Virus record (IMG/VR): IMGVR_UViG_3300045988_183796
Reading direction: 5' to 3' (one strand)
DNA length: 64,000 nt
Source: a virus
Positions within the stretch are counted from its first letter, which is position 1. Every line of letters begins with the position of its first letter. The translations under genes and the position numbers were made by a program. Shown here one piece after another: positions 4,782 to 64,000 of this stretch. The notes under the pieces were generated by a model. It worked only from the letters and a program-made list of their open reading frames with translations. It was not told the origin of the DNA and searched no databases.

Positions 4782-4786
4782 AGCCT

Positions 4787-23449: not shown

Positions 23450-23790
23450 GGGAGATTTCCTGGCGTTTGGAGAAATACCCATAGGACTTTGAGCTTTGCT
23501 GCACAAAAACAAGCCTCCGCTCTTTGGCGGGGGCTCTTCTTGTATTCTCAAAAACGTTGAATTTAATTTCACTGAATTCCGATTCAGCATTATTTGGCGT
23601 GGCTCAGCTTGGCCCGGCAGCACGATACCATGGCGGCCGAACACAATGATTCTCCAGAACGGAATTCTCGACATTCGGTGCGAATCGTATATAATCTAAA
23701 TAATAAAACAGTATAGGAATATAGCTAAGCCGCCAAGCGAGTGAAATCGTTTGGTGGCTTTTCTTTTTGCTACGGAAAAGTAGATATTGT

Positions 23791-23875
23791 ACTTGTCATG
23801 AGCTTGTTGCATACTTGCTACGAACTTGCTAAAAACTTGCTAAGCACTTGCTACGCTTTACCTCGAAGCAAGTTC
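23791..23875. repeat. Iteron-like array: about five direct repeats of ACTTGCTA at 11-bp spacing plus one inverted copy
   Basis: atacttgctacg / aacttgctaaa / aacttgctaag / cacttgctacg, then gaagcaagtt. Read directly from the sequence. Confidence 0.65.
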
Positions 23876-29892: not shown

Positions 29893-30300
29893 TCAGATTC
29901 TCATTAGAAGTTCTGTCGGAGTAAATGCGACTACTTTGCTTCTTGTGAAATCACGAACGTTTCTCGTAATAATATAATCGGCATGAATTTGTTCTGCAGT
30001 AGCACTTTGAACTGCATCTTCAAAATCCTTCCAGTTCATTTCAACAGCTTTTGAAAGAATAGAAGAACTGAAATCAGCAAATTCAAAAATCAAACACAGT
30101 TTGTGATATACTTCTTCGATTTTATCGGAAGTGAGTTCTTTTCGGAGAATATACATAATATTTGCGAAGGATAGCGTGGAAATATAGCCTTTTGCTTGCT
30201 CTGTTTCGCATAGCTTCCATATCATCGCGGATTCCTTCACAAAGTTTTCTCGGTTTTGCAATACATCCAATACGATGTTAGCGTCAATCAGTAAGGTCAT
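29893..30300 (-). CDS. PIN-domain toxin (VapC-like)
   Basis: MTLLIDANIVLD..., with acidic residues in PIN positions. Overlaps the antitoxin gene by 17 nt. Confidence 0.8.
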   Translation of the reverse strand: MTLLIDANIVLDVLQNRENFVKESAMIWKLCETEQAKGYISTLSFANIMYILRKELTSDKIEEVYHKLCLIFEFADFSSSILSKAVEMNWKDFEDAVQSATAEQIHADYIITRNVRDFTRSKVVAFTPTELLMRI

Positions 30301-30615: not shown

Positions 30616-30643
30616 TTGCGCTGCTGTGCGAACTTCGTACAAT
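30616..30643 (+). promoter_or_regulatory. Regulon promoter (TTGCGC-tgctGTGCGAACttcg-TACAAT) driving a short terminated transcript
   Basis: Member of the conserved-spacer promoter family. Followed by an intrinsic terminator at 30747-30785. Confidence 0.55.
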
Positions 30644-30746
30644 AAGAATTGTACAAGAGAAACGGCAAGAGACATTTGTAGTGATTGTAGTTGGTCGCCA
30701 CGAATCGATACCGTGTCTGCTTGCGCATAATTACCTCTTTTCGAAG

Positions 30747-30785
30747 CCCACAGGTCATTCTCTCACCTGTGGGTTTTGTTTATTG
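30747..30785 (+). terminator. Intrinsic terminator (perfect 9-bp stem plus T-run)
   Basis: cccacaggtcattctctcacctgtggg ttttgtttatt. Confidence 0.7.
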
Positions 30786-30810
30786 CGGAATCGTGCGAAT
30801 TGCAGATAAT
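30783..30810 (+). promoter_or_regulatory. Regulon promoter upstream of omega-RNA-like copy 2
   Basis: TTGCGG-aatcGTGCGAATtgca-GATAAT. Confidence 0.55.
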
Positions 30811-30879: not shown

Positions 30880-31198
30880 AGTCAACAACCCCGCCTAAAC
30901 CGGTTCGCCGGTTATAGACGGGGCTTGCGGGGCAACCTGTAAGCCCAGTTGATTAGCCTAAGCCCATTGCTCCGGCAGTGGGGAAAACTACGTTGTGTAC
31001 TAATAATATAGGCACCTTATCCATGCTCCACAAGTGGTGAGCTCTGCAGGCGTTTCGTTAAACATCTCCGAGGGGAGGAGAAGTGCGAGCGTCATGTCGA
31101 AAGGCTAAAACAGTGCATAACATTGGCGAAGTGGACCACAGGACGCAAGTCCTGACTTATAGTTTTATTACTATTTTACGAATGGAGAAACAAAAATT
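30880..31198 (+). ncRNA. Omega-RNA/HEARO-like scaffold copy 2 (no iscB), abutting the flotillin start codon
   Basis: Shares the 5' ~75-nt and 3' ~95-nt blocks with copy 1. The middle is divergent. Shows compensatory base changes (caggac-gcaa-gtcctg versus cagggc-gcaa-gccctg). Confidence 0.5.
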
Positions 31199-32842
31199 AT
31201 GGTATATGTGATTGGAATTGTAGCAGCCCTGATTATTCTCTTTGGATTTCTCTGCTACAAGAAAGCTCCGCCCACGGAGGCTATCGTTGTAACTGGCTTT
31301 GGCCTGTCTAAGCCTAAAGTGGTTTGCGGAAAGGGTACATTTGTTCTGCCCGTTCTTCAACGGGCTGACCGACTGAATATGCGCCTTTTGAAAATCGATG
31401 TCAAGACTCCTGAAACAGGTGTTAAGACGAAGAACGGCGTAAGTCTCTGGATTGACTCTGTTGTCACGATTCAAGTCTACAGCGAAAACTCTACCGTTCT
31501 GGATGAAGAAGTGAAGGCATCCGGTCTGAAAGACGCCAAGGCGTACATCATGTCCCGCCAGCAGGCAGCCATCTCGAACTTTCTCGGCATGAACGAGCAG
31601 GGCATCAATGAGAAAGTTAATGACGTTCTGCAGGGCAATTTGCGTGAGATTGTCTCTGACATGACCGTTGACCAAATTCTGACGAACCGCAAGCAGATGG
31701 CTGTGAGCGTTATCGAGAATGCTCGCCCCGACCTTGCTAAGATGGGACTTGAGGTCGTGACTTTTAATGTCCAGGACATCAGGGATGCAGTGGATGTTCA
31801 AGGCCACAATCACGGCGTTATCGAAGCTATCGGCATCGAACAGGAAGAGCTCGTAAAGAAACAGGCTGAAATTGCCCGTGCTCAGGCTGCCCGTGATGTA
31901 GCCTGCGCGAAGGCCGATGCTGAGATGGCTGCAAATGCCAAAGAAGTTGAAGCGCAGACTGCGATTGCAAAACGCAACAATGAATTGCAGCTCGCCAAGG
32001 CAAAGCTGAAAGCTGAAGCTGATAAAGCTGCGGCTGACGCAGATGCTGCCGGTCAGATTCAGATGAATCTCCGCGCCAAAGAAATCAAAGAAGCGGAAGC
32101 GGATGCTGAAATTGCCAAGCAGAAGAAAATGGTAGACCTTGCCGCACAGGAAGCCGAGGTCCAACAACGCAAACTGGATGCGGAAGTCCGCAAACAGGCA
32201 GATGCTGACCTGTACCGCCGCCAGAAAGAGGCAGAAGCCAAGAAATATGAGGCGGAACGTGCAGCTGAGGCACAGAAGTTCTCCAAGCAGCAGGAAGCAG
32301 AAGGCATCGAGCTTGTCGGTAAGGCAGAAGCTGAAGCGATTCGTCAGAAAGGCTTGGCTGAAGCGGAAGCTATGAAACAGAAAGCAGAGGCATATAAGCA
32401 GTATAACGATGCGGCTGTGGCTGAAATGCTCATCAAGGTTCTTCCGGACATTGCCAAGAGCGTGGCTCAGCCTTTGTCCAGCATTGATAAGGTTTCTATC
32501 ATTGGCGGTGATGCCTCCGGCGTATCCGGCGTTTCCGGGAACGTTCCTATCCTGATGGCTCAAACCATGCAGACGGTGAAAGAAGCGACCGGCATTGACA
32601 TGGGCGAAATTGTCCGTGCCAACAGCATCCAGGCAAAGACAGACCGCAACATCAACATTATGACTCAATGTGAACAGCCTGAGAATAACAAAGAGAAAGG
32701 AGGTGCCAAGGCAATGGAACGCGTAGAAGGCGGCTATCTGATTCATGAGAAGAGTCTCAACGGTGAGGAAGTCACTCATTTTCGACCGGATGTGACCGAA
32801 GAAGAGAAGGCTATCATGAAAGACAAAAAAGCCAAAGATTAA
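31199..32842 (+). CDS. Flotillin-like SPFH/Band-7 protein
   Basis: N-terminal TM helix, then an SPFH domain (VVTGFGLSKPKVVCGKGTFVLPVLQRADRLNMR...) and a long EA/K-rich coiled-coil. The antisense 581-aa ORF was rejected. Confidence 0.8.
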   Translation: MVYVIGIVAALIILFGFLCYKKAPPTEAIVVTGFGLSKPKVVCGKGTFVLPVLQRADRLNMRLLKIDVKTPETGVKTKNGVSLWIDSVVTIQVYSENSTVLDEEVKASGLKDAKAYIMSRQQAAISNFLGMNEQGINEKVNDVLQGNLREIVSDMTVDQILTNRKQMAVSVIENARPDLAKMGLEVVTFNVQDIRDAVDVQGHNHGVIEAIGIEQEELVKKQAEIARAQAARDVACAKADAEMAANAKEVEAQTAIAKRNNELQLAKAKLKAEADKAAADADAAGQIQMNLRAKEIKEAEADAEIAKQKKMVDLAAQEAEVQQRKLDAEVRKQADADLYRRQKEAEAKKYEAERAAEAQKFSKQQEAEGIELVGKAEAEAIRQKGLAEAEAMKQKAEAYKQYNDAAVAEMLIKVLPDIAKSVAQPLSSIDKVSIIGGDASGVSGVSGNVPILMAQTMQTVKEATGIDMGEIVRANSIQAKTDRNINIMTQCEQPENNKEKGGAKAMERVEGGYLIHEKSLNGEEVTHFRPDVTEEEKAIMKDKKAKD

Positions 32843-35546: not shown

Positions 35547-35665
35547 CTCAAAAGCGCGGTTTTGTCCGCGCAGCTGCTCCAAAAGACAGCCTCCACGCGG
35601 CGAGCAGCGGGCAACGGGAGACAGTCCCGGCAAATTGTCTTTGAGACGGAAGGAAGAAGTGCCCT

Positions 35666-39759: not shown

Positions 39760-39787
39760 TTGCCCATTTGTGCGAATTGCAGACAAT
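39760..39787 (+). promoter_or_regulatory. Regulon promoter
   Basis: TTGCCC-atttGTGCGAATtgca-GACAAT. Confidence 0.55.
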
Positions 39788-39870
39788 CAGAAATAAAGCG
39801 TAAAGCAAAGGAGCTGAGTACCATCTCAAAATTTGCAAGCAAAAAGTTGATTGAGCGAAATTGCAATATC

Positions 39871-40359
39871 ATGAAAGACTACGGCAACGGCTATTCCATT
39901 GAGGAGCTTGCCGCAAAATACAGGTTGAGCGTCCGTACATGCTATCGAGCGTTAGACGACGCGAAACAGGAGGCCAGAATTCAGCTGGCACAGGTTGAGG
40001 ATGCCAGAAAAGCTGAAATCCTTGCGGCATACAAGAACAGTGTCCCTCTCAAGGAAATGATTGCGAAATTCAACGTGACAGAAGGATATTGCGGCATGGT
40101 TGCCAACGATGCGGGCCTGACTGAAAACCGCAGAAACGAGCGCATCAAAATTAGACAAAGACCGCGCAACGAGAATATCTTTCGAGAATACGAGAGTGGC
40201 GTGCCGGTGCAGAAACTATCCGAAAAGTATCAGCTCTCGGTTCCTGGTATTTACAAGGTTATCCAGCGAGTGAGAAGGCAAAAGGAGGCGATGGAGTTTT
40301 GCAATGGATTGTTAAGCAAACCAAATCGAAAGGATATGAGTTCACCTTCGATATCGTGA
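39871..40359 (+). CDS. HTH-domain protein (repeated resolvase/sigma-region-4-like HTH units)
   Basis: Repeated motifs YSIEELAAKYRLSVRTCYRAL, PLKEMIAKFNVTEGYC and VQKLSEKYQLSVPGIYKVI. The start is uncertain; a non-ATG start further upstream near RBS AAAGGAG is possible. Confidence 0.45.
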   Translation: MKDYGNGYSIEELAAKYRLSVRTCYRALDDAKQEARIQLAQVEDARKAEILAAYKNSVPLKEMIAKFNVTEGYCGMVANDAGLTENRRNERIKIRQRPRNENIFREYESGVPVQKLSEKYQLSVPGIYKVIQRVRRQKEAMEFCNGLLSKPNRKDMSSPSIS

Positions 40360-41034: not shown

Positions 41035-41631
41035 ATGAGCTACGAACCTATCATAACACCTGGTAATAACTTTTTTCTTGTCTCAACAGAATACAAAGAG
41101 AGCTGCTTCGCCTGGTGCCGCAAGCAAATTAGAGCGACACTGAGGACCTGTCAGGGACGAGTCATCATCATTGATGCAACGGGCGAGTACGCGGACTTGG
41201 CGCTTGAGCATGACAGATTGATTCGAGAGAAAATTCCGTCCATTATTTATCGGTATAAGCTGGTGGACGGGAAACCGTATATTGCTCATGTCATTGAAGT
41301 TGATACGGAAGCAAATGAAGCACCGCACCTGATTGTATACGATATCAGCCGGACCATAATCACCAGCTGGAAGGTCGGCGTAGAGGCAATTGATAAAATC
41401 CTGCAATCCTATGCCGTGATGCAAGACAGTGAAATCGCGTGGTTGTATGTTCCGCTGGACTTATATACCAATGTCAAGCCCGAAAGCGAATCCTGGAACA
41501 TTCTGGAACGAACCATCAAGGGCAATGAAGGAAAGCTCATGACAGTGCTAACGACTCGAAAATTCACCATCGGCATGGTTCAGCGCTGTTTGCATATGAC
41601 AAAAAATAAACTTTTGGAGGATAGCAAATGA
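41035..41631 (+). CDS. Hypothetical protein
   Basis: RBS GCTGAGGTTACACA. Coding-like composition. Confidence 0.55.
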   Translation: MSYEPIITPGNNFFLVSTEYKESCFAWCRKQIRATLRTCQGRVIIIDATGEYADLALEHDRLIREKIPSIIYRYKLVDGKPYIAHVIEVDTEANEAPHLIVYDISRTIITSWKVGVEAIDKILQSYAVMQDSEIAWLYVPLDLYTNVKPESESWNILERTIKGNEGKLMTVLTTRKFTIGMVQRCLHMTKNKLLEDSK

Positions 41632-42515
41632 CCAAGGAACAGCTGAGAATCGCATTGACGGCGAATGCCGTTACCAAACAGACCCGTAACCATTTTGGGT
41701 TCAGTGACCCGTGTGGGAAGACTCTGGAAGAGTACAACAAATCTTCAATGCTTTGCTGTGTGACGGCAGCGCAGAAAATGAACACGCCGGGTTTCGAGCG
41801 TGTCCTTGCTGCACAGATTTTCCCCTGCTTCACCATCGGCTGCTGGAACCAGACGAAGACGGTCTGTGATTTTGACTACGAGTTCCAGAAAATTCTTATG
41901 GATACGGATGACATGGCGATTCATCAGGATATCCTGCAGCGGCTTCCGATTCGTGATTTCTTTATCCCGGTGTATGACAGCTACGACTACAACGGTATGT
42001 TCGTGCATGTGGAATTCGAAGAGAAAGAGAAGACCACTGCTTTCGGCATCGTTCTTGTCGGCCCGGCCAAAGGCAGCCATGATGATTTCACGTTCCTGAC
42101 TCTGCCTGCCTGGGCCAAAGAAAACCAGAGTTTGACGGAAGCAACTCGGAGCACGAAAGAATACCTGGAAAAGGCAGCCGGGCAGCGGCAGGTAAATGGT
42201 ATCAGCGTACCGGCTGTGATGGAAGCAGTTCCTTCGGTCTTTGACGGCGGCACACCTTATGTTCGCCTGGCAATCCTGTGTGCCTACTATCTTGCCAGTA
42301 AGAACCCTGATGTCCGCTTGGAAACTTCCAAAAAGCGTGACCGCCCGGTATTCGTGTTTCAGGGAAAGGCACAGCGAATCAACGTCAAGACATATACCGT
42401 TGGTGAGAATGCGGCCAAAGAATACAAAAAGAATGGGGAAGGCAAAACTCCCCGCTGGCAGCATTACTGGTGCGGCAATGGCCGGGAACGCCGGGAATGC
42501 AAGTTTATTTACTGA
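41628..42515 (+). CDS. Hypothetical protein
   Basis: ATGA overlap with the upstream gene. RBS TGGAGGATAGCAA. Confidence 0.55.
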   Translation: MTKEQLRIALTANAVTKQTRNHFGFSDPCGKTLEEYNKSSMLCCVTAAQKMNTPGFERVLAAQIFPCFTIGCWNQTKTVCDFDYEFQKILMDTDDMAIHQDILQRLPIRDFFIPVYDSYDYNGMFVHVEFEEKEKTTAFGIVLVGPAKGSHDDFTFLTLPAWAKENQSLTEATRSTKEYLEKAAGQRQVNGISVPAVMEAVPSVFDGGTPYVRLAILCAYYLASKNPDVRLETSKKRDRPVFVFQGKAQRINVKTYTVGENAAKEYKKNGEGKTPRWQHYWCGNGRERRECKFIY

Positions 42516-43339: not shown

Positions 43340-43405
43340 TTATTGACAAACGGCGCAAAAGGTGCTTGGGTTAAAAGCCCTTGCAAAAAGTGCGATATCC
43401 ATATA
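43340..43405 (+). promoter_or_regulatory. sigma70-like promoter (TTGCAA ... TATAAT) preceded by a copy of the 27-bp element
   Basis: ttgcaaaaagtgcgatatccatataataaa, with ATTTTACCAGCACTTTGATATTTTGTGG just upstream. Confidence 0.45.
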
Positions 43406-43437
43406 ATAAATTGAAATTCAAAAGGGAGATACACATT

Positions 43438-44046
43438 ATGAGTGAACAGAAAGAAAATGCTCAGCTCGAAGCTTATCGGAAGCTCGTTGAAGATTTCAAG
43501 CGCTTTGTCAGCTCTGAGATTCGAACGGAGGAAAACAGTTACCGAATTGTGGACATGACTTCCGAAGATGCCGAAATCGATGACCCGAGCGTTCCGGTGA
43601 CTCAACTGGAGGACGAAAAAGCAGAGAAGCTTGCCGGTATTTGCATGGACCTGTCCAATGCCACGCTGTGGCTCTACTACAACCGTGACAAATTTGCAAA
43701 CGTCGAGTTCATGCCCCTGACTGATGAAACTCTGAAAGAATACCAGAAGCAGGCTCAGAATGCTCTGAATGAACCGAAGAGCCCTCTGTATCTGAAATCC
43801 TGGTATCAGCTCATTGAAATGTTGAGTCAGGAATGTATCCCGCAGCGCTACGAGGACGACGGTCAGCGATATACAGACGTCTATGTGAACACCTATATGC
43901 TCATGTACCTGACCATGACCCGACTCAAGAACGGCGGAACCTTTACACGCCTTGCAAACGGGCAGGGAAGCGATGCTGTGAAAATCACGACCATCGCAAT
44001 GTACTACTTCTCCAGCCTTTTGACGGTTCTCTGCACTGAATATTAA
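43438..44046 (+). CDS. Hypothetical protein
   Basis: RBS AAAAGGGAGATACACATT. Confidence 0.55.
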   Translation: MSEQKENAQLEAYRKLVEDFKRFVSSEIRTEENSYRIVDMTSEDAEIDDPSVPVTQLEDEKAEKLAGICMDLSNATLWLYYNRDKFANVEFMPLTDETLKEYQKQAQNALNEPKSPLYLKSWYQLIEMLSQECIPQRYEDDGQRYTDVYVNTYMLMYLTMTRLKNGGTFTRLANGQGSDAVKITTIAMYYFSSLLTVLCTEY

Positions 44047-44056
44047 GAAATTTTTT

Positions 44057-44094
44057 CCCGTGTGAGCAGCGACGCTCATGCGGGAATTTTTTTG
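44057..44094. terminator. Intrinsic terminator
   Basis: cccgtgtgagcagcgacgctcatgcggg followed by a T-run. Confidence 0.7.
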
Positions 44095-44104
44095 TGATTT
44101 TCTA

Positions 44105-44132
44105 TTGTCAATCTGTGCGAATTACGTACAAT
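44105..44132 (+). promoter_or_regulatory. Regulon promoter
   Basis: TTGTCA-atctGTGCGAATtacg-TACAAT. Confidence 0.6.
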
Positions 44133-44165
44133 GAAAAATATAAACCAAAAATATATCTTATCGTT

Positions 44166-44200
44166 GTCCCGCATGAGTTGTTTGTGCGGGACTTTTTTGT
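44166..44200 (+). terminator. Leader-embedded intrinsic terminator/attenuator between the promoter and gene 44221
   Basis: Perfect 8-bp stem gtcccgca...tgcgggac followed by TTTTTTG. Confidence 0.6.
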
Positions 44201-44220
44201 TTGCGGAAAGGAAATGCACT

Positions 44221-44418
44221 ATGTACGGTTTATCAGAAGAAAGCTTAACGATTGTTGGTGTTATTTTGATTGTGGTTGGTGTCGCTATGATTGGTTGGGG
44301 ATTTGAATGGAATCAGGACATTACCAATGATAAACGGGTCGGAACCGTTGTCAGAGACATTGGCGTTATGGTTTTGGCAACCGGCATTATATTTGTGATG
44401 CAGCGGGCAATGAACTAA
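44221..44418 (+). CDS. Small two-TM membrane protein
   Basis: RBS GGAAAGGAAATG. Two hydrophobic helices. Confidence 0.45.
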   Translation: MYGLSEESLTIVGVILIVVGVAMIGWGFEWNQDITNDKRVGTVVRDIGVMVLATGIIFVMQRAMN

Positions 44419-44434
44419 ATTGAGAAAAAGTAAG

Positions 44435-44465
44435 GCAGGCTCATTTCGGGCCTGCTTGTTTTTTG
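44435..44465 (+). terminator. Intrinsic terminator
   Basis: gcaggctcatttcgggcctgc followed by a T-run. Confidence 0.7.
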
Positions 44466-44473
44466 GGTGAAAT

Positions 44474-46669
44474 ATGATTACAACAAAGAAGATTGACCCA
44501 CGGCCATATCAGCAGAAAGCTGCTGCGGCGATTCATAGAGAGTGGGATGCCGGGAATAAGAAAACGCTGGTTGTGATGCCGACCGGAACCGGCAAAACTA
44601 TTGTGTTTGCAAGCATCGTGAACGACCAGGTGGAAAAGGGCGAACACGTTTTGATTCTTGCGCACCGGGAAGAGCTTTTACAGCAGGCAAGCGACAAGCT
44701 CAAGATGGTGACGGGGCTAGAGACCGCATTGGAGAAAGCTCAGAACTCGGCACTTGATTCCGATAAAATGGTCGTTGTCGCCAGTGTTCAGACTCTCTCT
44801 AAGCAGAATCGGTTAATGAAGTATCCGCGTGATTATTTCGGGGCTATCATCATTGATGAAGCGCATCACACGGCAGCCAAAACTTACAAGGGAATTCTCG
44901 AGCATTTCATTGATGCCAAAGTGTTGGGCGTGACTGCAACACCCGACCGAAGCGACATGAAATCCCTATCTGATATCTTTGATAGTCTTGCATTTGAATA
45001 TAAGCTCCCGGATGCAATTCGGGAAGGATATCTCTGCAAAATTAACACGAAGACAATTCCGGTCGAGGTAGACATCAGCAAGGTTCATATCAATGCCGGT
45101 GATTTCAGTGCTCAGGACCTCGGCAATGTTCTTGACCTGTATCTGGACACGATTGCGGATGCCATTGTGCGAGAATGCCTGAACCGAAAGACTGTCATCT
45201 TTACGCCTCTGGTACGAATCAGCAAAAGACTGTGCAATATCCTCAATAAGCGAAACTTCAAGACCGCAGAAGTCAATGGCGCGTCTGCGGACCGGGAGGA
45301 CGTTCTGAAAGGGTTTGACAATGGCGAGTACAAGGCGCTGACGAACGCGATGCTCCTGACGGAAGGCTGGGATTGCCCGACCGTTGACTGTATCATCTGC
45401 TTGCGTCCTACCAAGAGCCGTAGCCTGTATGCGCAGATTGTGGGACGCGGAACACGCCTATGTGAAGGGAAAAAGAATCTTCTCGTGCTGGATTTCCTGT
45501 GGCTGACAAAGAAACATAGTCTTTGCCATCCTGCTGATATTTTCTGTGAAGACCCGGAAGTGGCACAAAAGACCACCGATATGCTGGCGGATGCGGCACT
45601 CACCGGTTCGAATAGCCAGGAAAATTTCGGGAGTCCCGAATTGGGGCTGATTGAGGCAATCGAGGAAGCACAGACTGAGCTGGACGAGGAAAAGCGGAAA
45701 GCACTGTGTGAACTCGAAAAGCAGGATACGATTCAGCGCAAGCTCAAGGCACAGCGTCAAAAGCCGAGAGGATTGGTTGACCCGCTGCAGTACATTTTCA
45801 GCATCGAAGCGCCGGAACTCAACGATTATCAGCCGATGTTTGAGAGTGAGAGGCAGGAGCCTTCCGATGACATCATCGATAGTATTTCGTGCTACGGCGT
45901 AAAAGGGGATGCCATCAAATCTCAGGGCCTTGCCGCTGCAATTCTCAAACGACTCATTGCTCGCAGAGCCAGCGGAATGGCTACCCCGAAACAAATTCGG
46001 TGTCTTGAAAGTTTTGGGTTCGTCCATGTTGGGCGCTGGACATTGCGGTATGCAAGCGGCTTTTTGGACATCATCAGTTCTCATGACTGGAAACTTCCGA
46101 ATGGGTTCGACGCATCCACGCTGGACCCGGAAAAGAATACGGCAGAAGACCTCGCCAAGCTGTATCCAGACTACAAGGAAGATGAGACGAAGAAAGCACC
46201 GCGTGGGGATGCTTTCATCTGCTGCTACTACGATGCAAGCTACAATTTGGCTCGCAAGAAGGTCTGCAACAGTGAAAAAGAAATGTTGAATCTGTATTAT
46301 TCACTGTTCAATACTTGCGAAGCAAAGTACTTCTATTATACGAAGGAAGCTGATGCCTGGATGGCAGAAAAGCAGAATCTAATTGCCAGAAAGACTGGAA
46401 CACCGATTCCTGCCGCACAGCCGACTCAGGCAACACCCGCAGTACCTCCTCCCTTTGTCCCGACAGCTCCCGCTAAGAGCCACGAATATTATTGCTGCCT
46501 TGCCCGATGGGATGGGTCCTACATTGGCTATGAAACTTACAAGAGTGAGCAGGCAGCTCAGAATGCCCGAAAGCAGATTGCCCGGCGCGGTGAGACGGCA
46601 GTGTATGCCACAGTAGAGGAAGCCGAAGCGTGGGTCGAACAACAGAAGGCGGCAAGAACCAGGAGGTAA
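44474..46669 (+). CDS. SF2 DEAD/DEAH-box helicase (type III restriction-res-like helicase core) with a C-terminal extension
   Basis: Walker A VVMPTGTGKT. DEAH box IIIDEAHH. Helicase C motifs LTEGWDCP, QIVGRGTR. Confidence 0.8.
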   Translation: MITTKKIDPRPYQQKAAAAIHREWDAGNKKTLVVMPTGTGKTIVFASIVNDQVEKGEHVLILAHREELLQQASDKLKMVTGLETALEKAQNSALDSDKMVVVASVQTLSKQNRLMKYPRDYFGAIIIDEAHHTAAKTYKGILEHFIDAKVLGVTATPDRSDMKSLSDIFDSLAFEYKLPDAIREGYLCKINTKTIPVEVDISKVHINAGDFSAQDLGNVLDLYLDTIADAIVRECLNRKTVIFTPLVRISKRLCNILNKRNFKTAEVNGASADREDVLKGFDNGEYKALTNAMLLTEGWDCPTVDCIICLRPTKSRSLYAQIVGRGTRLCEGKKNLLVLDFLWLTKKHSLCHPADIFCEDPEVAQKTTDMLADAALTGSNSQENFGSPELGLIEAIEEAQTELDEEKRKALCELEKQDTIQRKLKAQRQKPRGLVDPLQYIFSIEAPELNDYQPMFESERQEPSDDIIDSISCYGVKGDAIKSQGLAAAILKRLIARRASGMATPKQIRCLESFGFVHVGRWTLRYASGFLDIISSHDWKLPNGFDASTLDPEKNTAEDLAKLYPDYKEDETKKAPRGDAFICCYYDASYNLARKKVCNSEKEMLNLYYSLFNTCEAKYFYYTKEADAWMAEKQNLIARKTGTPIPAAQPTQATPAVPPPFVPTAPAKSHEYYCCLARWDGSYIGYETYKSEQAAQNARKQIARRGETAVYATVEEAEAWVEQQKAARTRR

Positions 46670-48265: not shown

Positions 48266-50152
48266 TCACTGAACAACTTCGCCAAGGTCATTTGCGTATT
48301 TCGGGTCACACATCATGAAATAGTTGACGGGGCCGTACTCCAGACCGAGCTCCTGCGCGTATGCCTTGATGACTTCCAGAACGTCCTCTTTCTTGAGATT
48401 ATACTTGGAATGCAGACGGGCAAACTCTTTGTCAGAGACAGAAACGCAAGAGCAATTTTCTGCATCGGTTTCTTTGCTGCCCAGCATCCCGTCAAAGATG
48501 TCCTGCCCTGCACAGAGAATCGTCTCATTGTTCATCGCATAGGCGATAACGGAAGCCTTACAGTCAAAGTCGCTGTTTTCCACAAGGAAATCCTCAGGGC
48601 GGCCGTGACGTTCAACAACGTTTTCATAGATGTCCCGGAGTTCGATAGGAGCAGAAGGAGCGGTCAGAGCTGCTTTATGAAGGCGCATGAATTCCACAAA
48701 CTTTTCATTCGAGAGGGTATCGGTATAAAAGCCGATGCCGGAAACGCGAACCTTCACTTCGCTGGCAAAGTAATCGTCAATTTTGGAGACGATTTTCTGC
48801 TGAACCCGCTTGTACGCTTCCTGAACATTGGAAGCCGTGTAAAATACCGGGAACTTCATGATGTCGATTCCCTCCGGCAGACTCGCGTCATAGGCCGCAT
48901 CAATGCCGCCTCGCAGCGCCGGAACCGCGTCATGAAGCTCTTTCACAGAAGAAATGTATCCGGTAATGTACAGCTCATCGTTTTTGCTGTAATGCCCGAT
49001 AAGTCCCACATAGAGGGTCTGCATCAGCATCCGCTTGAAGCTGAACCAACATAGACGAATGGGTAGAATGACATTAGCAGCCGTACCTTCCGCACGATAG
49101 GTGCCGGGGGCAGAGACCTTTTCCAGCAGAATCTGGTCGTTCTTGTCACCGTATTTTTCCTTGAAAAGAGCTTGAAGAATTTCAGTGGACGAAAGAGGAG
49201 TGGACATTGGAATCGTTTCATTCAGAAAAGAGAGGAATGCATCCACATTGTCTTTCTGCCATGCGTCATTAGACATGCTTGCACGCTGCATAGAGAGCTT
49301 GTCTTTCCTATCATCGGGCAGGGGCTCATACCCACAGGCGATACGAAGTTCGTTCTCCGTGACAGCATCCGTTGCACTTGCAATTTTTTTGATGGTGTTC
49401 TCGGTCGGCTGAGCTTTTGCGTTGCCATTCACGAGGCTGCTGATATACCCACGAGTCAGCCCCGCTTGAAACGCAAACTTACCCTGTGTGCGGGTTCCGA
49501 TGGCTTTTTTGACCAGCGATGCCAGCCTTTGAAAGTCGGGCTCTTTGGGAAAGGTGGCCTCCGCATCCTTATTGCTGTTCTTTTCAAGTACCGACTTGTC
49601 CCAACCGGTGACAAGAGAATACCCAATATCCTTCAAGGATTGATAGGCAACCCCGTTCTGGTCAAGAGCCGGGGAGTATGTACCGCTGTTATCTTCCAGC
49701 TGCTCTACTGCCTCACGCACCATCCTTGCTTCGTTCATCAGGATGACGTCCGGGGCTTCAAGCCGGGCAAGACTCTTGTACCGATTATTGAGGCGCTCGA
49801 CTCGTGCGGCCAATGCAGTGATGTTGGCAACTTGGTCTTCCGTTGCATGGGCAGAGATATCTGCACCAAGTTCAAAATGGTTTAGTGCAGGAATATCCAC
49901 GCCTTTGCTCTTGGCGAATTCCACAATGGCTTCCGCGCCATAGAAACGCTTCTCATGGGCTGCGACAACTTTCGTTATCGTGTCGGCCGAGTTGTCCAGC
50001 TCAAGCACTTCACCTTTTCCGGCATCCTCGACATAACACCTGGTGTTGGTGAGAAAGCCTTTCAAAAAATCAGCATCCACATCCAGCTTCTTAGCGATGC
50101 CGGGCAGCTGCTTATAGAAAATCACGCGCGTGGCGAGGTTAACAGAAATCAT
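48266..50152 (-). CDS. Large hypothetical protein with an internal XRE-like HTH
   Basis: GLTRGYISSLVNG resembles a Cro/C1 HTH. 628 aa. Confidence 0.5.
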   Translation of the reverse strand: MISVNLATRVIFYKQLPGIAKKLDVDADFLKGFLTNTRCYVEDAGKGEVLELDNSADTITKVVAAHEKRFYGAEAIVEFAKSKGVDIPALNHFELGADISAHATEDQVANITALAARVERLNNRYKSLARLEAPDVILMNEARMVREAVEQLEDNSGTYSPALDQNGVAYQSLKDIGYSLVTGWDKSVLEKNSNKDAEATFPKEPDFQRLASLVKKAIGTRTQGKFAFQAGLTRGYISSLVNGNAKAQPTENTIKKIASATDAVTENELRIACGYEPLPDDRKDKLSMQRASMSNDAWQKDNVDAFLSFLNETIPMSTPLSSTEILQALFKEKYGDKNDQILLEKVSAPGTYRAEGTAANVILPIRLCWFSFKRMLMQTLYVGLIGHYSKNDELYITGYISSVKELHDAVPALRGGIDAAYDASLPEGIDIMKFPVFYTASNVQEAYKRVQQKIVSKIDDYFASEVKVRVSGIGFYTDTLSNEKFVEFMRLHKAALTAPSAPIELRDIYENVVERHGRPEDFLVENSDFDCKASVIAYAMNNETILCAGQDIFDGMLGSKETDAENCSCVSVSDKEFARLHSKYNLKKEDVLEVIKAYAQELGLEYGPVNYFMMCDPKYANDLGEVVQ

Positions 50153-50389
50153 GGTGTACTCCTTTCAAATATGTCATTAGCTGTACAATGCTGTCATCTT
50201 CTGTAATTATAATAGCACATCCCGCACCAAAAAGCAAGCATGAATTTACAAAAAATGACAAGAAAATACACAAGATGACATATTTGGGCAAAGCAGTTGA
50301 TTTCCGAGTCTTTGCTACCCCGTGATGGAACATGCCCTGTGCGTCTTGTCTATGCCACAGTTTTGCCACGATTTTGCCATGATTTTGCC

Positions 50390-50418
50390 TTGTGCATCCG
50401 TGCGAATTGGATATGATA
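50390..50418 (+). promoter_or_regulatory. Regulon promoter preceded by three GATTTTGCC direct repeats
   Basis: TTGTGC-atccGTGCGAATtgga-TATGAT. Repeats at about 50360-50390. Confidence 0.5.
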
Positions 50419-50441
50419 GGAAATATAAGATAAATAAGTGT

Positions 50442-50523
50442 AGCCGCAGAGATTTCGATTTCTGCGGCTCATTTCTTTTGTGGTCCCCATGCGGATGAAA
50501 ATGTCTGCGTGGGGATTTTTTAT
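50442..50523 (+). terminator. Two tandem leader hairpins with T-runs between the promoter and the methyltransferase gene
   Basis: agccgcagagatttcgatttctgcggct followed by catttctttt, then tccccatgcggatgaaaatgtctgcgtgggga followed by tttttt. Confidence 0.5.
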
Positions 50524-50537
50524 TTGGAGATATAGAC

Positions 50538-51632
50538 ATGGCAAAGAATGAGAATCTGCACAAGGCAAAGGATGCCAAGAACGACGAGTTCTATACGCTG
50601 TTGAGCAGTATATCCGAAGAACTCAGACACTACAAGCAGCATTTCGCTGCAAAAATTGTATTCTGCAACTGCGATGACCCGACATGGTCTGCTTTCTGGC
50701 GGTATTTCCACCTGAACTTTGCAGAACTTGGCTTAAAGAAGCTGATTTCCACGCACTATGACCGTACAGAACCCACCTACAAGATGGAGTATGAGGGCGG
50801 AGACGACAATGATGTGGAGGTCGGTGTGAAGACCCCGCTGGAAGGCAATGGTGATTTCCGCAGTCAAGAATGCCTTAATTTGCTGGATGAGTGCGATATC
50901 GTGGTAACCAACCCGCCCTTCAGCCTTTTTAGAGAATTCGTCGGGACGTTGATGGAACACGATAAGAAGTTCATTATTTGGGGCAACAACAATGCCATTA
51001 CATACAAAGAGTTCTTTCCACTTTTGAAAGAAAACAAGGTGTGGCTTGGTTATACAGCGAATAAGACGTGTACATTTAGAGTTGCCGAAGGCTATCGCTT
51101 CGACGAAAAACTTACTGCACAATTCAATGACGGGCACAAGTATGGGAAAGTGCCCGCCATTTCTATTTTTACCAACCTCGACATCCAGAAGCGCCACGAA
51201 AAGCTGATTCTTTGGCAGAGATACTATGACGATAACGGGAATCCGTTGCCGGATGCGGAGGAGAGATACCCCCACTACGATAATTACGATGCCATCAATG
51301 TAGACAGGGTTGCTGATATTCCGGTGGATTATCGAGACGTAATGGGTGTGCCGATTACGTTCTTGGATAAGTATAATCCGAAAGAATTTGAAATTTTAGG
51401 CTACACGGGCGGTTTGGGGTGGAATAACCAAAACAATATAAAAACCACCAAAGAGTATTTGGAATGCAAACAGCACAACCCAGACGGGAGTATTACAAGT
51501 GGGGGCAAGGTAAATACTGGCGCGGCATTGTGCTTTAGTGAAATTCCTGCACAAAGATACTATTCGGCATCAAATTGCGACGGATATCTACTCAGAACAT
51601 ACGGACGAATTCTTATTTGCAAGACGAAATGA
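50538..51632 (+). CDS. N6-adenine DNA methyltransferase (orphan; NPPF motif IV)
   Basis: VVTNPPFSLF catalytic motif. N-terminal DEFYT element, as in EcoRI-methylase-like phage/plasmid methyltransferases. Confidence 0.75.
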   Translation: MAKNENLHKAKDAKNDEFYTLLSSISEELRHYKQHFAAKIVFCNCDDPTWSAFWRYFHLNFAELGLKKLISTHYDRTEPTYKMEYEGGDDNDVEVGVKTPLEGNGDFRSQECLNLLDECDIVVTNPPFSLFREFVGTLMEHDKKFIIWGNNNAITYKEFFPLLKENKVWLGYTANKTCTFRVAEGYRFDEKLTAQFNDGHKYGKVPAISIFTNLDIQKRHEKLILWQRYYDDNGNPLPDAEERYPHYDNYDAINVDRVADIPVDYRDVMGVPITFLDKYNPKEFEILGYTGGLGWNNQNNIKTTKEYLECKQHNPDGSITSGGKVNTGAALCFSEIPAQRYYSASNCDGYLLRTYGRILICKTK

Positions 51633-57017: not shown

Positions 57018-57350
57018 TAGCTAAAAGAACAAGTGAAAACCCTGCTCGCAGTAAAATGCGGGCGGGGTCTTTTTTTGTTTGACAAGGTGTGCGAGATGGC
57101 TATGATGATTATTGTATCAAAGATACCACTTACCTTCATTTTTAACATTCCGCTTTTGCAAGGACAGCCTCATTCCGAGGTTGTCCTTTTTCTTTTGCGT
57201 AACTCTCCACGGAAACACTTGTCCCCGTGTTTAACATAAATCCGCAAGCTGCTCTAAATTTTGGAACAGCTTAGTCAATTCAAATCGTACGAAAGTACGA
57301 AAACACTACGCAAACATTCTGCGTAGACTGTAAAAAAAGGAGTAATAATT

Positions 57351-58036: not shown

Positions 58037-58064
58037 TTGACCTGATGTGCGAATCTTATACAAT
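58037..58064 (+). promoter_or_regulatory. Regulon promoter driving a short transcript
   Basis: TTGACC-tgatGTGCGAATctta-TACAAT. A second regulon promoter lies 90 nt downstream. Confidence 0.5.
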
Positions 58065-58142
58065 CAGATTTGTACGAGAGATACTATTCACACAATAGGA
58101 TTCACACGAAGCTGCTCGGGAGCCGTATGGCTGCTGGGTGGC

Positions 58143-58170
58143 TTTTTCTTTTGTGCGAGTTGCGTACAAT
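58143..58170 (+). promoter_or_regulatory. Regulon promoter (weak -35) for the lipoprotein / macro / MazG operon
   Basis: ttttGTGCGAGTtgcg-TACAAT. Confidence 0.45.
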
Positions 58171-61217: not shown

Positions 61218-61245
61218 TTGCACATCTGTGCGAATCAGATATAAT
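61218..61245 (+). promoter_or_regulatory. Regulon promoter
   Basis: TTGCAC-atctGTGCGAATcaga-TATAAT. Confidence 0.55.
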
Positions 61246-61268
61246 AACCCTAATAAGATAAAAATTGT

Positions 61269-61314
61269 GCCCTGACGGCATCTGAATTGGATGCTGCCGG
61301 GGCTTTTTGTTTTT
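61269..61314 (+). terminator. Leader-embedded intrinsic terminator/attenuator between the promoter and the helicase gene
   Basis: gccctgacggcatctgaattggatgctgccggggc followed by TTTTTGTTTTT. Confidence 0.55.
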
Positions 61315-61329
61315 CAAGGAGATATGGCT

Positions 61330-64000
61330 ATGACACTGAACGACTTGTCAAGCGAACAGCAGGAGTTCGTACATTTGGCACTGTCGGGCAAGAACGTATT
61401 GTGTGACGCCTGCATTGGCAGCGGAAAAACATCTACCATCAATGTGCTCTGTGATGCGTACCCGCCAGAACGGCGTATTTTGTACTTGACCTATAACCGA
61501 CTGCTCAAACTGGATGCCAAAGACAAAATCAAGAATGGCAATGTCCTGGTTCAGAACTATCATGGATTTGCAAGCCTGCTACTGAACAAAAAGGGAATCC
61601 GGAATTGCGGACAGGGCGAACAGCTTGCCATGGTATTGGAAAAGAAAATTCCGATTCCGCCGATTGATACTCTTATCATTGACGAGTATCAGGATATCAA
61701 TGACGAGATTGCAGAACTGCTCAAATATATTCGTTCTCAGAATCCGGGCCTTCAAATCGTCGCAGTGGGCGATATGAAGCAGAAAATCTACGATGATACA
61801 GCACTGGATGTCTGGGAGTTTATGCAGGATTTTCTCGGCCGCCATGAACAGGTGGTTTTCACGAAATGCTTCCGTATTTCTCATGACTTGGCAGAACGAC
61901 TCGGCAATATCTGGGGCAAGACCATCAACGGCGTAAATGGTTCCTGCATCGTGGAACAGATGTCGGTCGATGAGGTGACGGAGTTTCTGAATAAACAAAA
62001 CCCGAAAGATGTTTTGTGTCTGGGCGCTCGAATCGGAGCTATGACAAAGGTGCTCAATGACCTGGAAAATCGCCCCGGAAACCTCTATGACAAGCATCAC
62101 GTCTATGCAAGTATCGCGGACAATGACGGGGATAAGGCGGTAGCACCCTCCTCGGATGTTGGTATCTTCACAACATTTGACGGCAGCAAAGGTATGGAGC
62201 GACCTATCTGTGTCGTGTTCGATTTCACTGAAGAATACTGGTCGTCCCGCACAAGCAAGCCGATGTCACGATATGAGATTCTTCGGAATCTGTTTTGTGT
62301 CGCAGCAAGCCGAGGAAAGCAGCGGATTATCTTCGTGAACTATGACCATCCGTTGAGCGATAAATCCCTGATGACTCCGACTGGAATGAATTGCGTGTTC
62401 CGGCATCCGTTTTCGTTCTCCGAGATGTTCGACCACAAATTCATCGAAGATGTGGATGCCTGCTATAAGCTGCTGGAAGTCACACCGATTGAACGCGATG
62501 ACAATACGACCATTGATGTACAAACAGCAGACGCAATGATTGATTTATCCCCCTGTATCAGTATCTACATGCAGGCGGGCTTCTTTAATTCCTATGATAT
62601 CGATGATGCACTCGCTTATTACATGGACCTACACAAGGACATGCAGTATTTGAAAATCAAGAAGGGTGCAACGGTCGAGGATAAGGTTCTGCTGCTCACG
62701 GCGCTTGAAACGAATCAGTGCCGGTATGTAAAACAGGTCAAGCCTCCTTTTGTGAACGCAAAAGCCAAAATGTCGCTCAGTATGCGGCTTGGCACCGTGT
62801 TCACTCCCGATGAGTATGTTCAGGCACGCGGAGATATCGACATCCATACTAATGACCATAAAGTGATTTATACTTCGGGCCTTGCGGATGTCGTAAAGAA
62901 CAACACCGTCTACTGCATCAAGTTCATCAGCAGTCTGGCACACAAGCATTTTCTGCAGTGTGCGTGTTCTATGATTGCGCTGGGTCTTCCATATGGCGTT
63001 GTCTGGAACGTGAAAAGTAACCTGATGTACAGCGTAAAAATCAAGGATAAGGACGCTCTGATTGACGCAATCCTCAAGTGCATCACGAAACGAGCTTACA
63101 ACGGCGCGGATTATTACACCTGCCGAAAAGGCTTTGTACAGGATACGGCATCGATTATCGACCGCTGGACTGACGACGGATATGCGGAAGAACCCACCGC
63201 CATCACTTCAGGCGACGGTATCGCCATCATCAAGCAAGGAACTCGCTATTTTGTGATGGACGGGGCACGCCGAAACACTCTGAACGATAATTTTGGGCTT
63301 GGTTTTGCCGATGTGAAAGACGCTTGTCTTGCTTATGCGAAGAGTTGCGAACTTCAAAAGACTGTGGACCATGATTCTCCTTATTCCGAAGTCGAGTTCT
63401 GGCTCGACCAGAACAAGGCGTTTGAGGAATACATGACTCAGGTAAGCCATGAAATCGAGCAGCACAAAGAAGGACCGTATGCAAAATACAAGTCTTTTGC
63501 TACGCCTGCTGTCCGAAAGATGCTGGCGGAAAAGGGACTTGCCATCACATTCCCGGAAAAAGCCCTCATCAAGGTCTGGAAAATGCGCCGCGCCGAAGAT
63601 GCCATGTATCAGAAAATCGAAGAAGCAAATAAGCAGAACAATTCCAATGTGCCGCTCGATGAGGCGTTCTTTGACTCTGAACTGGTGGATTCTGTTGAGG
63701 GAAATACCGAAAGTGCCAAGGCAAAAGCCAAACCCCAAAAGGAATCCGCATTGCCGTTTTCCAAGTACGGCGCAGATGAAAAGAAGAGTTACCGTGTCGT
63801 GAAGAGTCCTGAACTTTCAAAGCCCAATCAGCCGCGCTATGTTGTGGTCGAGACGGCTACCGATACGGTCCTGGACAACGCCAACGGATACGGATACCTC
63901 TCCTATCAGGCTGCCTGGAAAGGGTATTCGTACAAGAGCAAGCATCATCTGGATGGGGCAAAGAAGCCTATGAGCAAGAGCGCAAAAGAACGGGCTAAGA
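61330..64000 (+). CDS. UvrD/Rep-family SF1 helicase, 3'-partial (runs off the window end)
   Basis: Walker A CIGSGKTSTI. Motif II IDEYQDIN. The frame is open to nt 64000. RBS AAGGAGATATGGCT. Confidence 0.8.
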   Translation, partial: MTLNDLSSEQQEFVHLALSGKNVLCDACIGSGKTSTINVLCDAYPPERRILYLTYNRLLKLDAKDKIKNGNVLVQNYHGFASLLLNKKGIRNCGQGEQLAMVLEKKIPIPPIDTLIIDEYQDINDEIAELLKYIRSQNPGLQIVAVGDMKQKIYDDTALDVWEFMQDFLGRHEQVVFTKCFRISHDLAERLGNIWGKTINGVNGSCIVEQMSVDEVTEFLNKQNPKDVLCLGARIGAMTKVLNDLENRPGNLYDKHHVYASIADNDGDKAVAPSSDVGIFTTFDGSKGMERPICVVFDFTEEYWSSRTSKPMSRYEILRNLFCVAASRGKQRIIFVNYDHPLSDKSLMTPTGMNCVFRHPFSFSEMFDHKFIEDVDACYKLLEVTPIERDDNTTIDVQTADAMIDLSPCISIYMQAGFFNSYDIDDALAYYMDLHKDMQYLKIKKGATVEDKVLLLTALETNQCRYVKQVKPPFVNAKAKMSLSMRLGTVFTPDEYVQARGDIDIHTNDHKVIYTSGLADVVKNNTVYCIKFISSLAHKHFLQCACSMIALGLPYGVVWNVKSNLMYSVKIKDKDALIDAILKCITKRAYNGADYYTCRKGFVQDTASIIDRWTDDGYAEEPTAITSGDGIAIIKQGTRYFVMDGARRNTLNDNFGLGFADVKDACLAYAKSCELQKTVDHDSPYSEVEFWLDQNKAFEEYMTQVSHEIEQHKEGPYAKYKSFATPAVRKMLAEKGLAITFPEKALIKVWKMRRAEDAMYQKIEEANKQNNSNVPLDEAFFDSELVDSVEGNTESAKAKAKPQKESALPFSKYGADEKKSYRVVKSPELSKPNQPRYVVVETATDTVLDNANGYGYLSYQAAWKGYSYKSKHHLDGAKKPMSKSAKERAK

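Follow-up and report, generated by a model that had tools for sequence, protein, structure and literature searches.

A set of sigma-A-like promoters with a common spacer heptamer, TGCGAAT, was identified in a 64,000-nt stretch of the virus record IMGVR_UViG_3300045988_183796 (hereafter the window; all positions are in its numbering), and many of the transcription units headed by these regulon promoters carry the signature of an intrinsic terminator in the leader, in front of the first start codon. The window belongs to a conjugative element, as evidenced by a type IV coupling protein gene at 40-1611 and a VirB4-like ATPase gene at 4778-7447, and the region that contains the promoters looks like an anti-defence or establishment island. 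The promoter-proximal terminator signatures are recurrent, strand-specific and conserved in relatives. The leader hairpins are very probably working terminators, and the anti-defence genes placed behind them are probably off by default until polymerase reads through. That the leader terminators gate expression and are also released in trans is a joint claim to which we assign a probability of about 45%.

Promoters with a common spacer heptamer and leader terminators

Thirteen promoters on the + strand, distributed between 23.6 and 61.3 kb, follow the common pattern TTG-N8-TGCGAAT-N4-TAnAAT. The heptamer has a fixed place inside the 16-nt spacer and is conserved across all 13, and the promoter hexamers differ among them. 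None of the TGCGAAT promoters occurs in the type IV secretion system (T4SS) part of the window; the same promoters are present at loci that contain helicase homologs with 91% and 70% identity. Transcription start sites were placed from the sequence throughout: downstream of the -10, position 7 is T in 74% of leaders and position 8 is a purine in 93%, with TA next, a profile that fits a start site 8 nt past the -10.

A GC-rich hairpin followed by a T-run was found before any start codon at 7 of the 13 promoters. Four of these were recovered by a strict detector, which requires a perfect stem and scanned +1 to +150 of each leader, and the other three, which have a bulge or a large loop, were seen by RNAfold. 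The four strict detections among 13 leaders compare with a mean of 0.01 over 1000 dinucleotide shuffles, and 3.5% of random 150-nt windows contain a strict terminator. Of the strong terminators that the same perfect-stem detector found in the window, 19 are on the + strand, against 2 on the - strand. Canonical terminator anatomy (stems of 10-16 pairs, at least 5 T within 8 nt after the stem) was observed at eight sites, and the distance from the inferred start to the hairpin is 17 nt at promoters 50390 and 61218, 26-30 nt at 44105 and 23679, and approximately 36-95 nt at 58037, 57090 and 30616.

The leader hairpin downstream of promoter 44105

The region around promoter 44105 has the following features:

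44055-44093 (+): terminator of the upstream gene (43381-44046), hairpin 44055-44086 followed by T7
44105-44132 (+): regulon promoter, -35 TTGTCA, 16-nt spacer, -10 TACAAT
44166-44202 (+): leader terminator, hairpin 44166-44192 then TTTTTTGTTT, 19 nt 5' of ATG 44221
44221-44418 (+): small membrane-protein open reading frame (ORF) of 65 aa with ATG 44221, first gene of the unit
44433-44466 (+): second terminator-like hairpin (44433-44457) with T-run, 8 nt 5' of ATG 44474

The heptamer of this promoter is located at 44116-44122, and transcription would start at about 44139-44140. As originally predicted, a perfect 8-bp hairpin with a T-run lies between the promoter and ATG 44221: the arms of hairpin 44166-44192 are GTCCCGCATGAG and TTTGTGCGGGAC, the perfect 8-bp core (GTCCCGCA/TGCGGGAC) becomes 11-12 pairs when G-U is counted, and the leader (44139-44223) folds at -19.3 kcal/mol by RNAfold. 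At the base of the stem, a double change from U-A to C-G is present in the related loci L024 and L100 (GCCCCGCA...TGCGGGGC). The ATG is preceded by a ribosome-binding site (RBS), AAAGGAAA. Promoter 44105 and its leader recur together in relatives L001, L025, L036, L057 and L125, and an equally sized 65-aa ORF is located directly 5' of the helicase in L001-L004.

The second hairpin (44433-44457), which the original prediction did not list, sits between the small ORF and a ResIII/DEAD helicase of 731 aa that starts at ATG 44474, and has no promoter after it; the stretch 44419-44476 folds at -18.7 kcal/mol (z -3.8, RNAfold). In L002, where the helicase ortholog is 70% identical, a hairpin, T-run and RBS occupy the same place with an unrelated stem sequence, the order being promoter, start block, hairpin, TTTTTGTTTTTT, RBS and ATG. 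The position of the hairpin before the helicase RBS is the same behind a promoter (L002) and behind an ORF (window).

The terminator of the upstream gene has 13 pairs, including 7 GC, and then TTTTTTTG, and its T-run abuts the -35 of promoter 44105. The 3' arm of this terminator (44075-44085, CTCATGCGGGA) matches the reverse complement of the leader hairpin's 5' arm (44167-44177, TCCCGCATGAG) exactly, which indicates that the hairpins on either side of the promoter are paralogous; pairing between them would be possible in single-stranded DNA (ssDNA) or in transcripts that read through. Leader-peptide attenuation at this site was considered and rejected, as the sole upstream in-frame ATG (44131) overlaps the -10.

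Leader terminators elsewhere in the window

The remaining promoter-terminator arrangements are as follows:

50390-50417 (+): regulon promoter, TTGTGC, TGCGAAT at 50401-50407, TATGAT
50425-50441 (+): conserved 17-nt block ATAAGATAAATAAGTGT, beginning approximately at the inferred transcription start
50442-50526 (+): tandem leader terminators, hairpins 50442-50469 and 50482-50517, a T-run after each
50538-51632 (+): EcoRI-like orphan methyltransferase gene, ATG 50538, 3' of the tandem hairpins
61219-61245 (+): regulon promoter, TTGCAC, TGCGAAT at 61229-61235, TATAAT
61269-61314 (+): leader terminator, hairpin 61269-61303 then TTTTTGTTTTT; ATG of the UvrD-like helicase at 61330
30616-30643 (+): regulon promoter P1, TTGCGC, TGCGAAC, TACAAT
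30747-30785 (+): terminator that would close a ~135-nt P1 transcript, hairpin 30747-30773 and T-run
30794-30810 (+): core of regulon promoter P2, TGCGAAT 30794-30800, -10 GATAAT 30805-30810
58037-58064 (+): regulon promoter P1, TTGACC, TGCGAAT, TACAAT
58108-58152 (+): long hairpin (38-nt stem-loop, 58108-58145) and T-run that would close a ~80-nt P1 transcript
58154-58170 (+): core of promoter P2, TGCGAGT 58154-58160, -10 TACAAT 58165-58170
57079-57106 (+): regulon promoter with variant heptamer (promoter 57090), TTGACA, TGCGAGA, TATGAT
57160-57197 (+): leader terminator, hairpin 57160-57188; next start codon at 57352
23679-23695 (+): core of the leftmost regulon promoter in the window, TGCGAAT 23679-23685, -10 TATAAT 23690-23695
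23727-23769 (+): leader terminator after promoter 23679, hairpin 23727-23760

The original prediction named five promoter-hairpin sites (44105, 61218, 50390, 30616 and 58037), all of which were recovered in place, and the recurrence it described proved to be broader, with three further cases: the leader terminators at 57160-57197 and 23727-23769, neither of which it listed, and hairpin 44433-44457. The hairpin before ATG 61330 and the two tandem hairpins before the methyltransferase ATG were found with their T-runs; at 30616 the expected hairpin and T-run are joined by the second regulon promoter at 30794. At 58037 a hairpin and T-run do stand before the next promoter, but the description of that hairpin as weak does not hold for a 38-nt stem-loop in a leader (58071-58160) of -36.9 kcal/mol (z -5.0, RNAfold). 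By the same program, leader 50424-50540 gave two hairpins and -49 kcal/mol (z -7.5), leader 61252-61332 gave -26.9 kcal/mol (z -3.8), leader 57113-57200 gave -24.8 kcal/mol (z -5.5), leader 23702-23790 gave -30.9 kcal/mol (z -4.5) and leader 30650-30795 gave -45.1 kcal/mol. A near match to the 17-nt block, ATAAGATAAAAATTGTG, lies in the UvrD-like helicase leader at 61253-61269, and no further near match to the 17-mer was found on either strand of the window.

Promoter P2 at 30794 lies directly 3' of the P1 terminator and 5' of a HEARO RNA (30881-31141) and a flotillin gene. The P2 at 58154 precedes a lipoprotein-like gene (ATG 58195); the T-run of 58108-58152 stands where the -35 of this promoter would be, and the arrangement is kept in about 15 distinct relatives. 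Tandems of P1, a short structured RNA, a terminator and P2 thus occur at 58037-58170, at 30616-30810 and in those ~15 relatives (for example, L030, L056 and L104), and in these tandems the T-run of the terminator takes the place of the second promoter's -35, and the first RNA has a 5' end complementary to both the T-run and the beginning of the TGTGCGAG motif. The terminator at 57160-57197 is kept in L026, L052, L059, L067 and L068. The counterpart of promoter 23679 in L001 drives its gene directly, without a terminator.

Two sets of direct repeats with an 11-nt period adjoin these leaders. Three to four copies of TTTTGCCAnnn at 50358-50392 (+) enter the -35 of the methyltransferase promoter, in an intergenic stretch shared with a divergent gene for a 628-aa protein; these repeats, which are operator-like or iteron-like in appearance, are unique in the window and occur also in L014 (6990-7035). 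Four copies of ACTTGCTAnnn at 23803-23846 (+), with an iteron- or centromere-like look, are located just 3' of the promoter-terminator pair at 23679.

Conservation of the leader hairpins in related loci

A search with the promoter-plus-leader pattern TGCGAAT N4 KANNAT N7 RTAAGATAWA matched twice in the window and never in shuffles, and it retrieved 98 loci from metagenome contigs and 30 from IMG/VR. These yielded 61 distinct leaders, about 52 of them real and grouped in families, and every real leader has a hairpin and T-run immediately after the 17-nt block (RTAAGATAAAYAAGTGT). Stem sequences are unrelated between leader families, whereas the GC stem followed by 5-8 U is retained in every one of them; an identical leader can precede different genes. 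The methyltransferase leader, for instance, is represented by about 30 distinct metagenome variants, with one hairpin in some and two in others, and one such leader sequence precedes differing downstream genes. A scan of GTDB genomes with the same pattern produced two loci, both of which were set aside as chance-like, being without a hairpin and in a differing sequence context.

A promoter-only scan took in all 138 loci (1.22 Mb) and produced 123 distinct leaders, 83 of which have a terminator before the start codon and 16 of which have two. When the classes chosen by the search pattern are subtracted, 41/81 leaders retain one, demonstrating that the layout is a trait of the family, found in about half of the units. 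From the start of the U-tract to the start codon the median distance across leaders is 28 nt.

Covariation was evaluated in 14 distinct orthologous leaders of the UvrD-like helicase, aligned from two sub-families. A 16-pair helix is retained, with 94% of cells paired and four pairs altered on both sides; neither the pairing nor the covariation score was reached by any of 500 shuffles, and in slid-partner controls the pairing fell to 37-50%. Different relatives have independently mended an A.C mismatch in this stem, one to G-C and another to A-U. Leader hairpin structure is therefore maintained by selection, in one family via compensatory changes.

The sequence at the start of the 17-nt block (T at -1, R at +1, TA and an AGAYA core) is also found in terminator-less leaders, and the AGAYA core is present in 36% of leaders compared with 4% of background. 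An 8-mer, ATAAGATA, whose reverse complement is present in the 44116 leader, was considered as an orientation-free operator or small RNA target and rejected, the stretch not being conserved in L024 and L100. At 7110-7550 of L014, a methyltransferase-type leader lies ahead of a decayed gene fragment; after the fragment come another terminator, a non-regulon promoter and then, immediately 5' of an RBS, a hairpin and T-run (leader z -3.8). Placement of a hairpin ahead of the RBS is thus not confined to TGCGAAT promoters.

Proposed gating and release in trans, and alternative roles of the leader hairpins

If, in about half of the regulon units, the leader hairpins act as Rho-independent terminators that begin between approximately +18 and +95, most initiations in those units would end as ~55-140-nt RNAs without an RBS, and two helicases, the orphan methyltransferase and others would be expressible only from read-through transcripts. 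The common spacer heptamer and the similar start region (T at -1, purine at +1, TA) suggest that one element-encoded regulator presumably switches the units together. Since the leaders are too short for an RNA switch, read-through would come either from a constant leak or from a factor that acts in trans on the polymerase, at or near the promoter; in the latter case the factor would act like lambda Q or N, or like NusG paralogs, and the terminator-bearing units would become a delayed class and the terminator-less units an immediate class. Gating is supported over tuning by the strong stems, the uninterrupted U-tracts and the serial pairs of terminators ahead of the methyltransferase and ahead of the ResIII helicase (in the latter without a promoter after the second); moreover, as the promoter hexamers already vary, weakening a promoter would be the simpler means of tuning output. 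Release in trans is supported by these same points, by the succession of promoter, short RNA, terminator and genes, as at lambdoid late promoters, and, in the 17-nt-block class, by a -10-like TAAGAT at +2 to +7. Antitermination had been part of the original prediction, and the layout leads us to favour a factor-dependent form of it, with an antiterminator itself not found in the scanned ORFs of the window.

Several observations weigh against this reading. No Pfam match to the NusG, Q or sigma families was obtained in the scanned ORFs of the 64-kb window; related contigs reach ~240-280 kb. Gene-end terminators nearly all have a fresh promoter after them, so that the units look autonomous, and such promoters would be redundant under a processive antiterminator. 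Because the 5' block is not confined to terminator-bearing leaders, it provides no evidence of a dedicated loading site, and the proposal that the 17-nt block is a terminator-specific one is weakened. Stem lengths of leader and gene-end terminators are alike, with no 'resistant' class visible, the idea behind the comparison being that long stems resist antitermination (PMC10325885). Finally, inverted repeats in a leader of the Bacillus plasmid p576 raised expression about 2-fold and did not lower it (PMC6294495).

The terminators could instead be real and unregulated, acting as fixed-ratio attenuators or insulators that pass a constant small fraction of transcripts, in which case units that share a constrained promoter and operator would attain differing levels by carrying none, one weak, one strong or two terminators. 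A graded series from none to one to two does exist, promoter 23679 has a terminator in the window and none in L001, one leader is coupled to differing genes, and the absence of an antiterminator among the scanned window ORFs is in keeping with this explanation. We nevertheless consider it unlikely, although it deserves serious attention, in that the terminators look strong and, where two are in series, scarcely any output would remain for genes expected to be needed soon after transfer, and tuning via the promoter is available. A different role, as 5' untranslated stabilisers or translation insulators, would make the T-run a spacer or enhancer and termination incidental; the stem-loop beside the RBS would block 5' decay and hold the RBS context constant in a shuffling island. 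The hairpins are 8-30 nt 5' of start codons at the 44105, 50390 and 61218 sites, the median distance from U-tract start to start codon across leaders is 28 nt, the helicase hairpin keeps its position after promoter and ORF alike, the 5' A-rich block can in two leaders pair with the U-run and so sequester the 5' end, and the repeats of the p576 ardC leader, which raised expression 2-fold, were read as stabilisers (PMC6294495). This role is nonetheless improbable: the GC stem with 5-8 U, retained by every family, is in itself the signal for termination, the hairpins at 30616, 58037 and 57090 are distant from any RBS or trailed by another promoter, and the 17-30 unpaired nucleotides at the 5' end are unlike classical 5' stabilisers.

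The original prediction had also raised small RNAs, and stand-alone genes for functional 55-140-nt RNAs, with the downstream ORFs otherwise expressed, are most plausible at 30616 and 58037, where the gene can be served by a second regulon promoter that overlaps the T-run or comes immediately after the terminator. The conservation of the 58037 arrangement in ~15 relatives and the L014 leader ahead of a decayed gene are in line with that possibility. As a general account it is doubtful, since in the 17-nt-block class the RBS and ATG lie ~10-30 nt past the U-tract with no other promoter, and independence from the downstream ORF fails at 44105, 50390 and 61218; the similarity of the 5' block extends regulon-wide, including terminator-less leaders, and is no evidence of a seed; and no complementary target was found in the window (the reverse-complement 8-mer of the 44116 leader is not conserved in L024 and L100), nor any match in Rfam. 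Known cis-acting RNA mechanisms (conAn2 of pLS20, canT of Tn916, zipper attenuators, riboswitches or T-boxes) have in their favour that the element is conjugative, from Firmicutes-like gut bacteria, and that such systems are described as widespread (PMC8191782, PMC13401043, PMC11658703). However, conAn2 spans 260-600 nt of RNA, with a GC-rich box and stem-loops between promoter and terminators, and acts together with the ConAn1 protein (PMC8191782), and the zipper attenuator cATT of pLS20, a long imperfect stem-loop whose flanks pair mutually and compete with the terminator, sits in a 456-nt leader (PMC13401043), whereas only 17-31 nt precede most hairpins here. The 5' stretch of the leaders is purine-rich, and minimum-energy folds leave it single-stranded or paired only with the U-tract, which extends the terminator stem (RNAfold); no pairing competes with the terminator stems. 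Rfam covariance models run against the leaders gave only sub-threshold chance hits (CyaR, E 0.98; RsaJ, E 0.22), with no Rfam family matched even at E<=1. Short leaders, the lack of an Rfam match and the lack of an alternative fold together exclude conAn of the pLS20 type, zipper attenuators and riboswitches for practical purposes, and the presence of many short units instead of one long operon is a further difference, so that this group of mechanisms is very improbable. Neither the pLS20-like layout nor the riboregulated attenuators of the original prediction are therefore upheld. Two other candidates were rejected: ssDNA promoters of the Frpo kind, because the promoters are not within hairpins, and recombination sites, integron attC-like or other, since the stems are of differing sequence and each has a T-run.

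A divergent HTH protein with similarity to the beta' clamp helices

Adjoining the double-terminator leader of the methyltransferase is a divergent gene:

48266-50152 (-): 628-aa HTH_3 protein

The N-terminal part of this helix-turn-helix (HTH) protein is homologous to the beta' clamp region, clamp helices included. Residues 110-176 (ITALAARVERLNNRYKSLARLEAPDVILMNEARMVREAVEQLEDN) are similar to residues 264-320 of the RNA polymerase beta' subunit, with a best match among PDB entries of E 3e-7 (phmmer; 73 beta'/gamma chains) and an NCBIfam rpoC match of E 5e-8. The key beta'-like residues are invariant in homologs down to 38% identity; the family spans 38-99% identity and occurs on contigs of up to ~350 kb. 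An AlphaFold model (pLDDT 84) displays a two-helix hairpin at 105-153. All of the top 50 PDB matches in Foldseek are beta' or gamma chains of RNA polymerase, and approximately two-thirds of these align over ~230 columns at 19-24% identity. Sigma region 2 and NusG/RfaH dock on the clamp-helix region of beta'. A search of the literature for mimics of the clamp helices yielded nothing relevant.

The 628-aa protein is a candidate, and only a candidate, for regulator of the TGCGAAT regulon; it and a Mor/CD3324-family protein are the candidates for an element-encoded repressor. It may be a sigma or NusG decoy, or a tethered regulator. Bound to TGCGAAT promoters, or as a soluble decoy, the protein would alter the engagement of sigma-A or NusG with the departing polymerase, and this would decide whether transcription stops at the leader terminators, giving rise to immediate and delayed anti-defence classes after conjugative entry. 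We regard it as a speculative proposal with little probability that the leader terminators are the off state of an undescribed promoter-loaded antitermination or sigma-handling system with the 628-aa protein as its trans factor.

The Mor/CD3324-family protein, with two HTH regions, is encoded at 39760-40359 (+) behind a terminator-less regulon promoter, and a Mor-family gene is also present in L001. This protein is a candidate early regulator.

Comparison with known regulatory systems

The closest described system is the establishment regulon EGeRS2 of p576, and the present case is of that kind. In EGeRS2 the repressor Reg576 acts on heptamer operators that are common to four strong sigma-A promoters, and the regulon is de-repressed after transfer (PMC6294495, PMC8708921). 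Repeated sigma-A promoters with a short shared motif were likewise found here ahead of establishment or anti-defence genes of a conjugative element; in both cases the promoters are strong, have a common heptamer and head variable, separately transcribed genes of a Gram-positive conjugative element, and one p576 leader (ardC) has inverted repeats. The two differ in that p576 has a dual TTATCCC, mostly 5' of the -35, whereas a single TGCGAAT is placed inside the spacer here, and in that p576 has 4 promoters in 8 kb compared with 13 in 38 kb. The leader hairpins carry U-tracts here, and a canonical terminator in about half of the leaders is new relative to the p576 papers, which do not describe one (PMC6294495, PMC8708921). 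No ribbon-helix-helix repressor resembling Reg576 was identified in the window.

At the lambdoid promoter PR', a strong promoter is followed closely by the intrinsic terminator tR', a short RNA is made by default and the antiterminator is Q. The likeness extends to a conserved DNA element between -35 and -10 and, in the 17-nt-block class, to a -10-like TAAGAT at +2 to +7, the position of the sigma-dependent pause element in lambda. However, TAAGAT is absent from the other leader classes, the heptamer is also found in promoters without leader terminators, and many promoters in a Gram-positive-like host stand against a single promoter in lambda. No Q-family Pfam match was obtained in the scanned ORFs of the window.

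Another comparison is with the PeSL cassettes of T4-type phages, in which the stem-loop is placed before the promoter. Repeated modules of stem-loop and promoter between co-oriented small accessory genes, in a shuffling region and with the same regulatory module ahead of differing genes, are common to both; the extra hairpin after the promoter and the location in a conjugative element, not a phage, set the present case apart.

Firmicutes conjugative elements do use termination and antitermination (PMC8191782, PMC11658703). pLS20 resembles the present element in having a terminator in the leader of a conjugative-element unit and many co-oriented intrinsic terminators, and differs in having one 32-kb operon with competing leader structures, compared with 55-140-nt leaders without a competing structure, which head many short units in an accessory island and not a T4SS operon. 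ConAn1 homologs share only 13-33% identity (PMC8191782); the first genes of the units here encode the 65-aa membrane protein, the methyltransferase and a helicase. In Tn916, which has terminator T1 and the cis-acting antiterminator canT, element genes are likewise silenced by terminators until the right state, when antitermination releases them (PMC11658703), although T1 insulates the end of the element from host read-through, whereas the terminators here follow the element's own promoters.

Gene content of the island and other features of the window

The regulon region encodes a NADAR protein, a GmrSD_N/HNH-domain protein, the Mor/CD3324-family regulator, the EcoRI-like orphan methyltransferase, two helicases, RlaP, flotillin, and VWA and PLD proteins. 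The gene at 41628-42515 has a counterpart of the same size in the syntenic loci L001, L003 and L004 that carries an AcrVA2-like Pfam family; the window copy matched only a PHROG of unknown function. We infer that the island is the leading region of the element. The element family is abundant in human gut metagenomes, where single protein clusters hold ~2,800-4,600 member sequences, and the helicase and HTH protein have hundreds of metagenomic relatives on contigs of up to ~280-350 kb. A megablast search with 48 kb of the window gave no match in INPHARED phages or PLSDB plasmids.

The HEARO RNA (IscB omega-RNA family) at 30881-31141 (+), which lies under a regulon promoter, is full-length (91 bits), and the gene 3' of it is the flotillin/SPFH gene at 31199-32842, not an IscB nuclease. 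An IscB-like HNH endonuclease is encoded at 12412-13605 (+; PHROG 119, E 1.5e-48). In the stretch 5' of it, at approximately 12290-12395, the last ~50 nt are near-identical to the 3' end of the HEARO RNA (31090-31141); Rfam reported no second HEARO there at the gathering threshold. HDV-like ribozyme matches (HDV-F-prausnitzii family) were found just 3' of the VWA gene (35573-35642, +) and in L058 (1386-1453 and 3181-3261), beside an array of four tRNA genes. The few minus-strand genes include a PIN-domain toxin-like gene (29893-30300) and an RHS-repeat protein (19995-21140).

Implications for anti-defence expression in conjugative elements

Anti-defence genes of conjugative elements need fast and brief expression after entry into a new cell, and the mechanism of such rapid expression in Gram-positive elements is known for very few plasmids. 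If read-through of the leader terminators is regulated, the island would follow a two-tier temporal anti-defence programme run by a new factor; if it is unregulated, the island would be a clear natural case of expression set by terminators under constrained promoters. Either way, the promoter-plus-leader pattern provides a practical key with which to search metagenomes for such islands.

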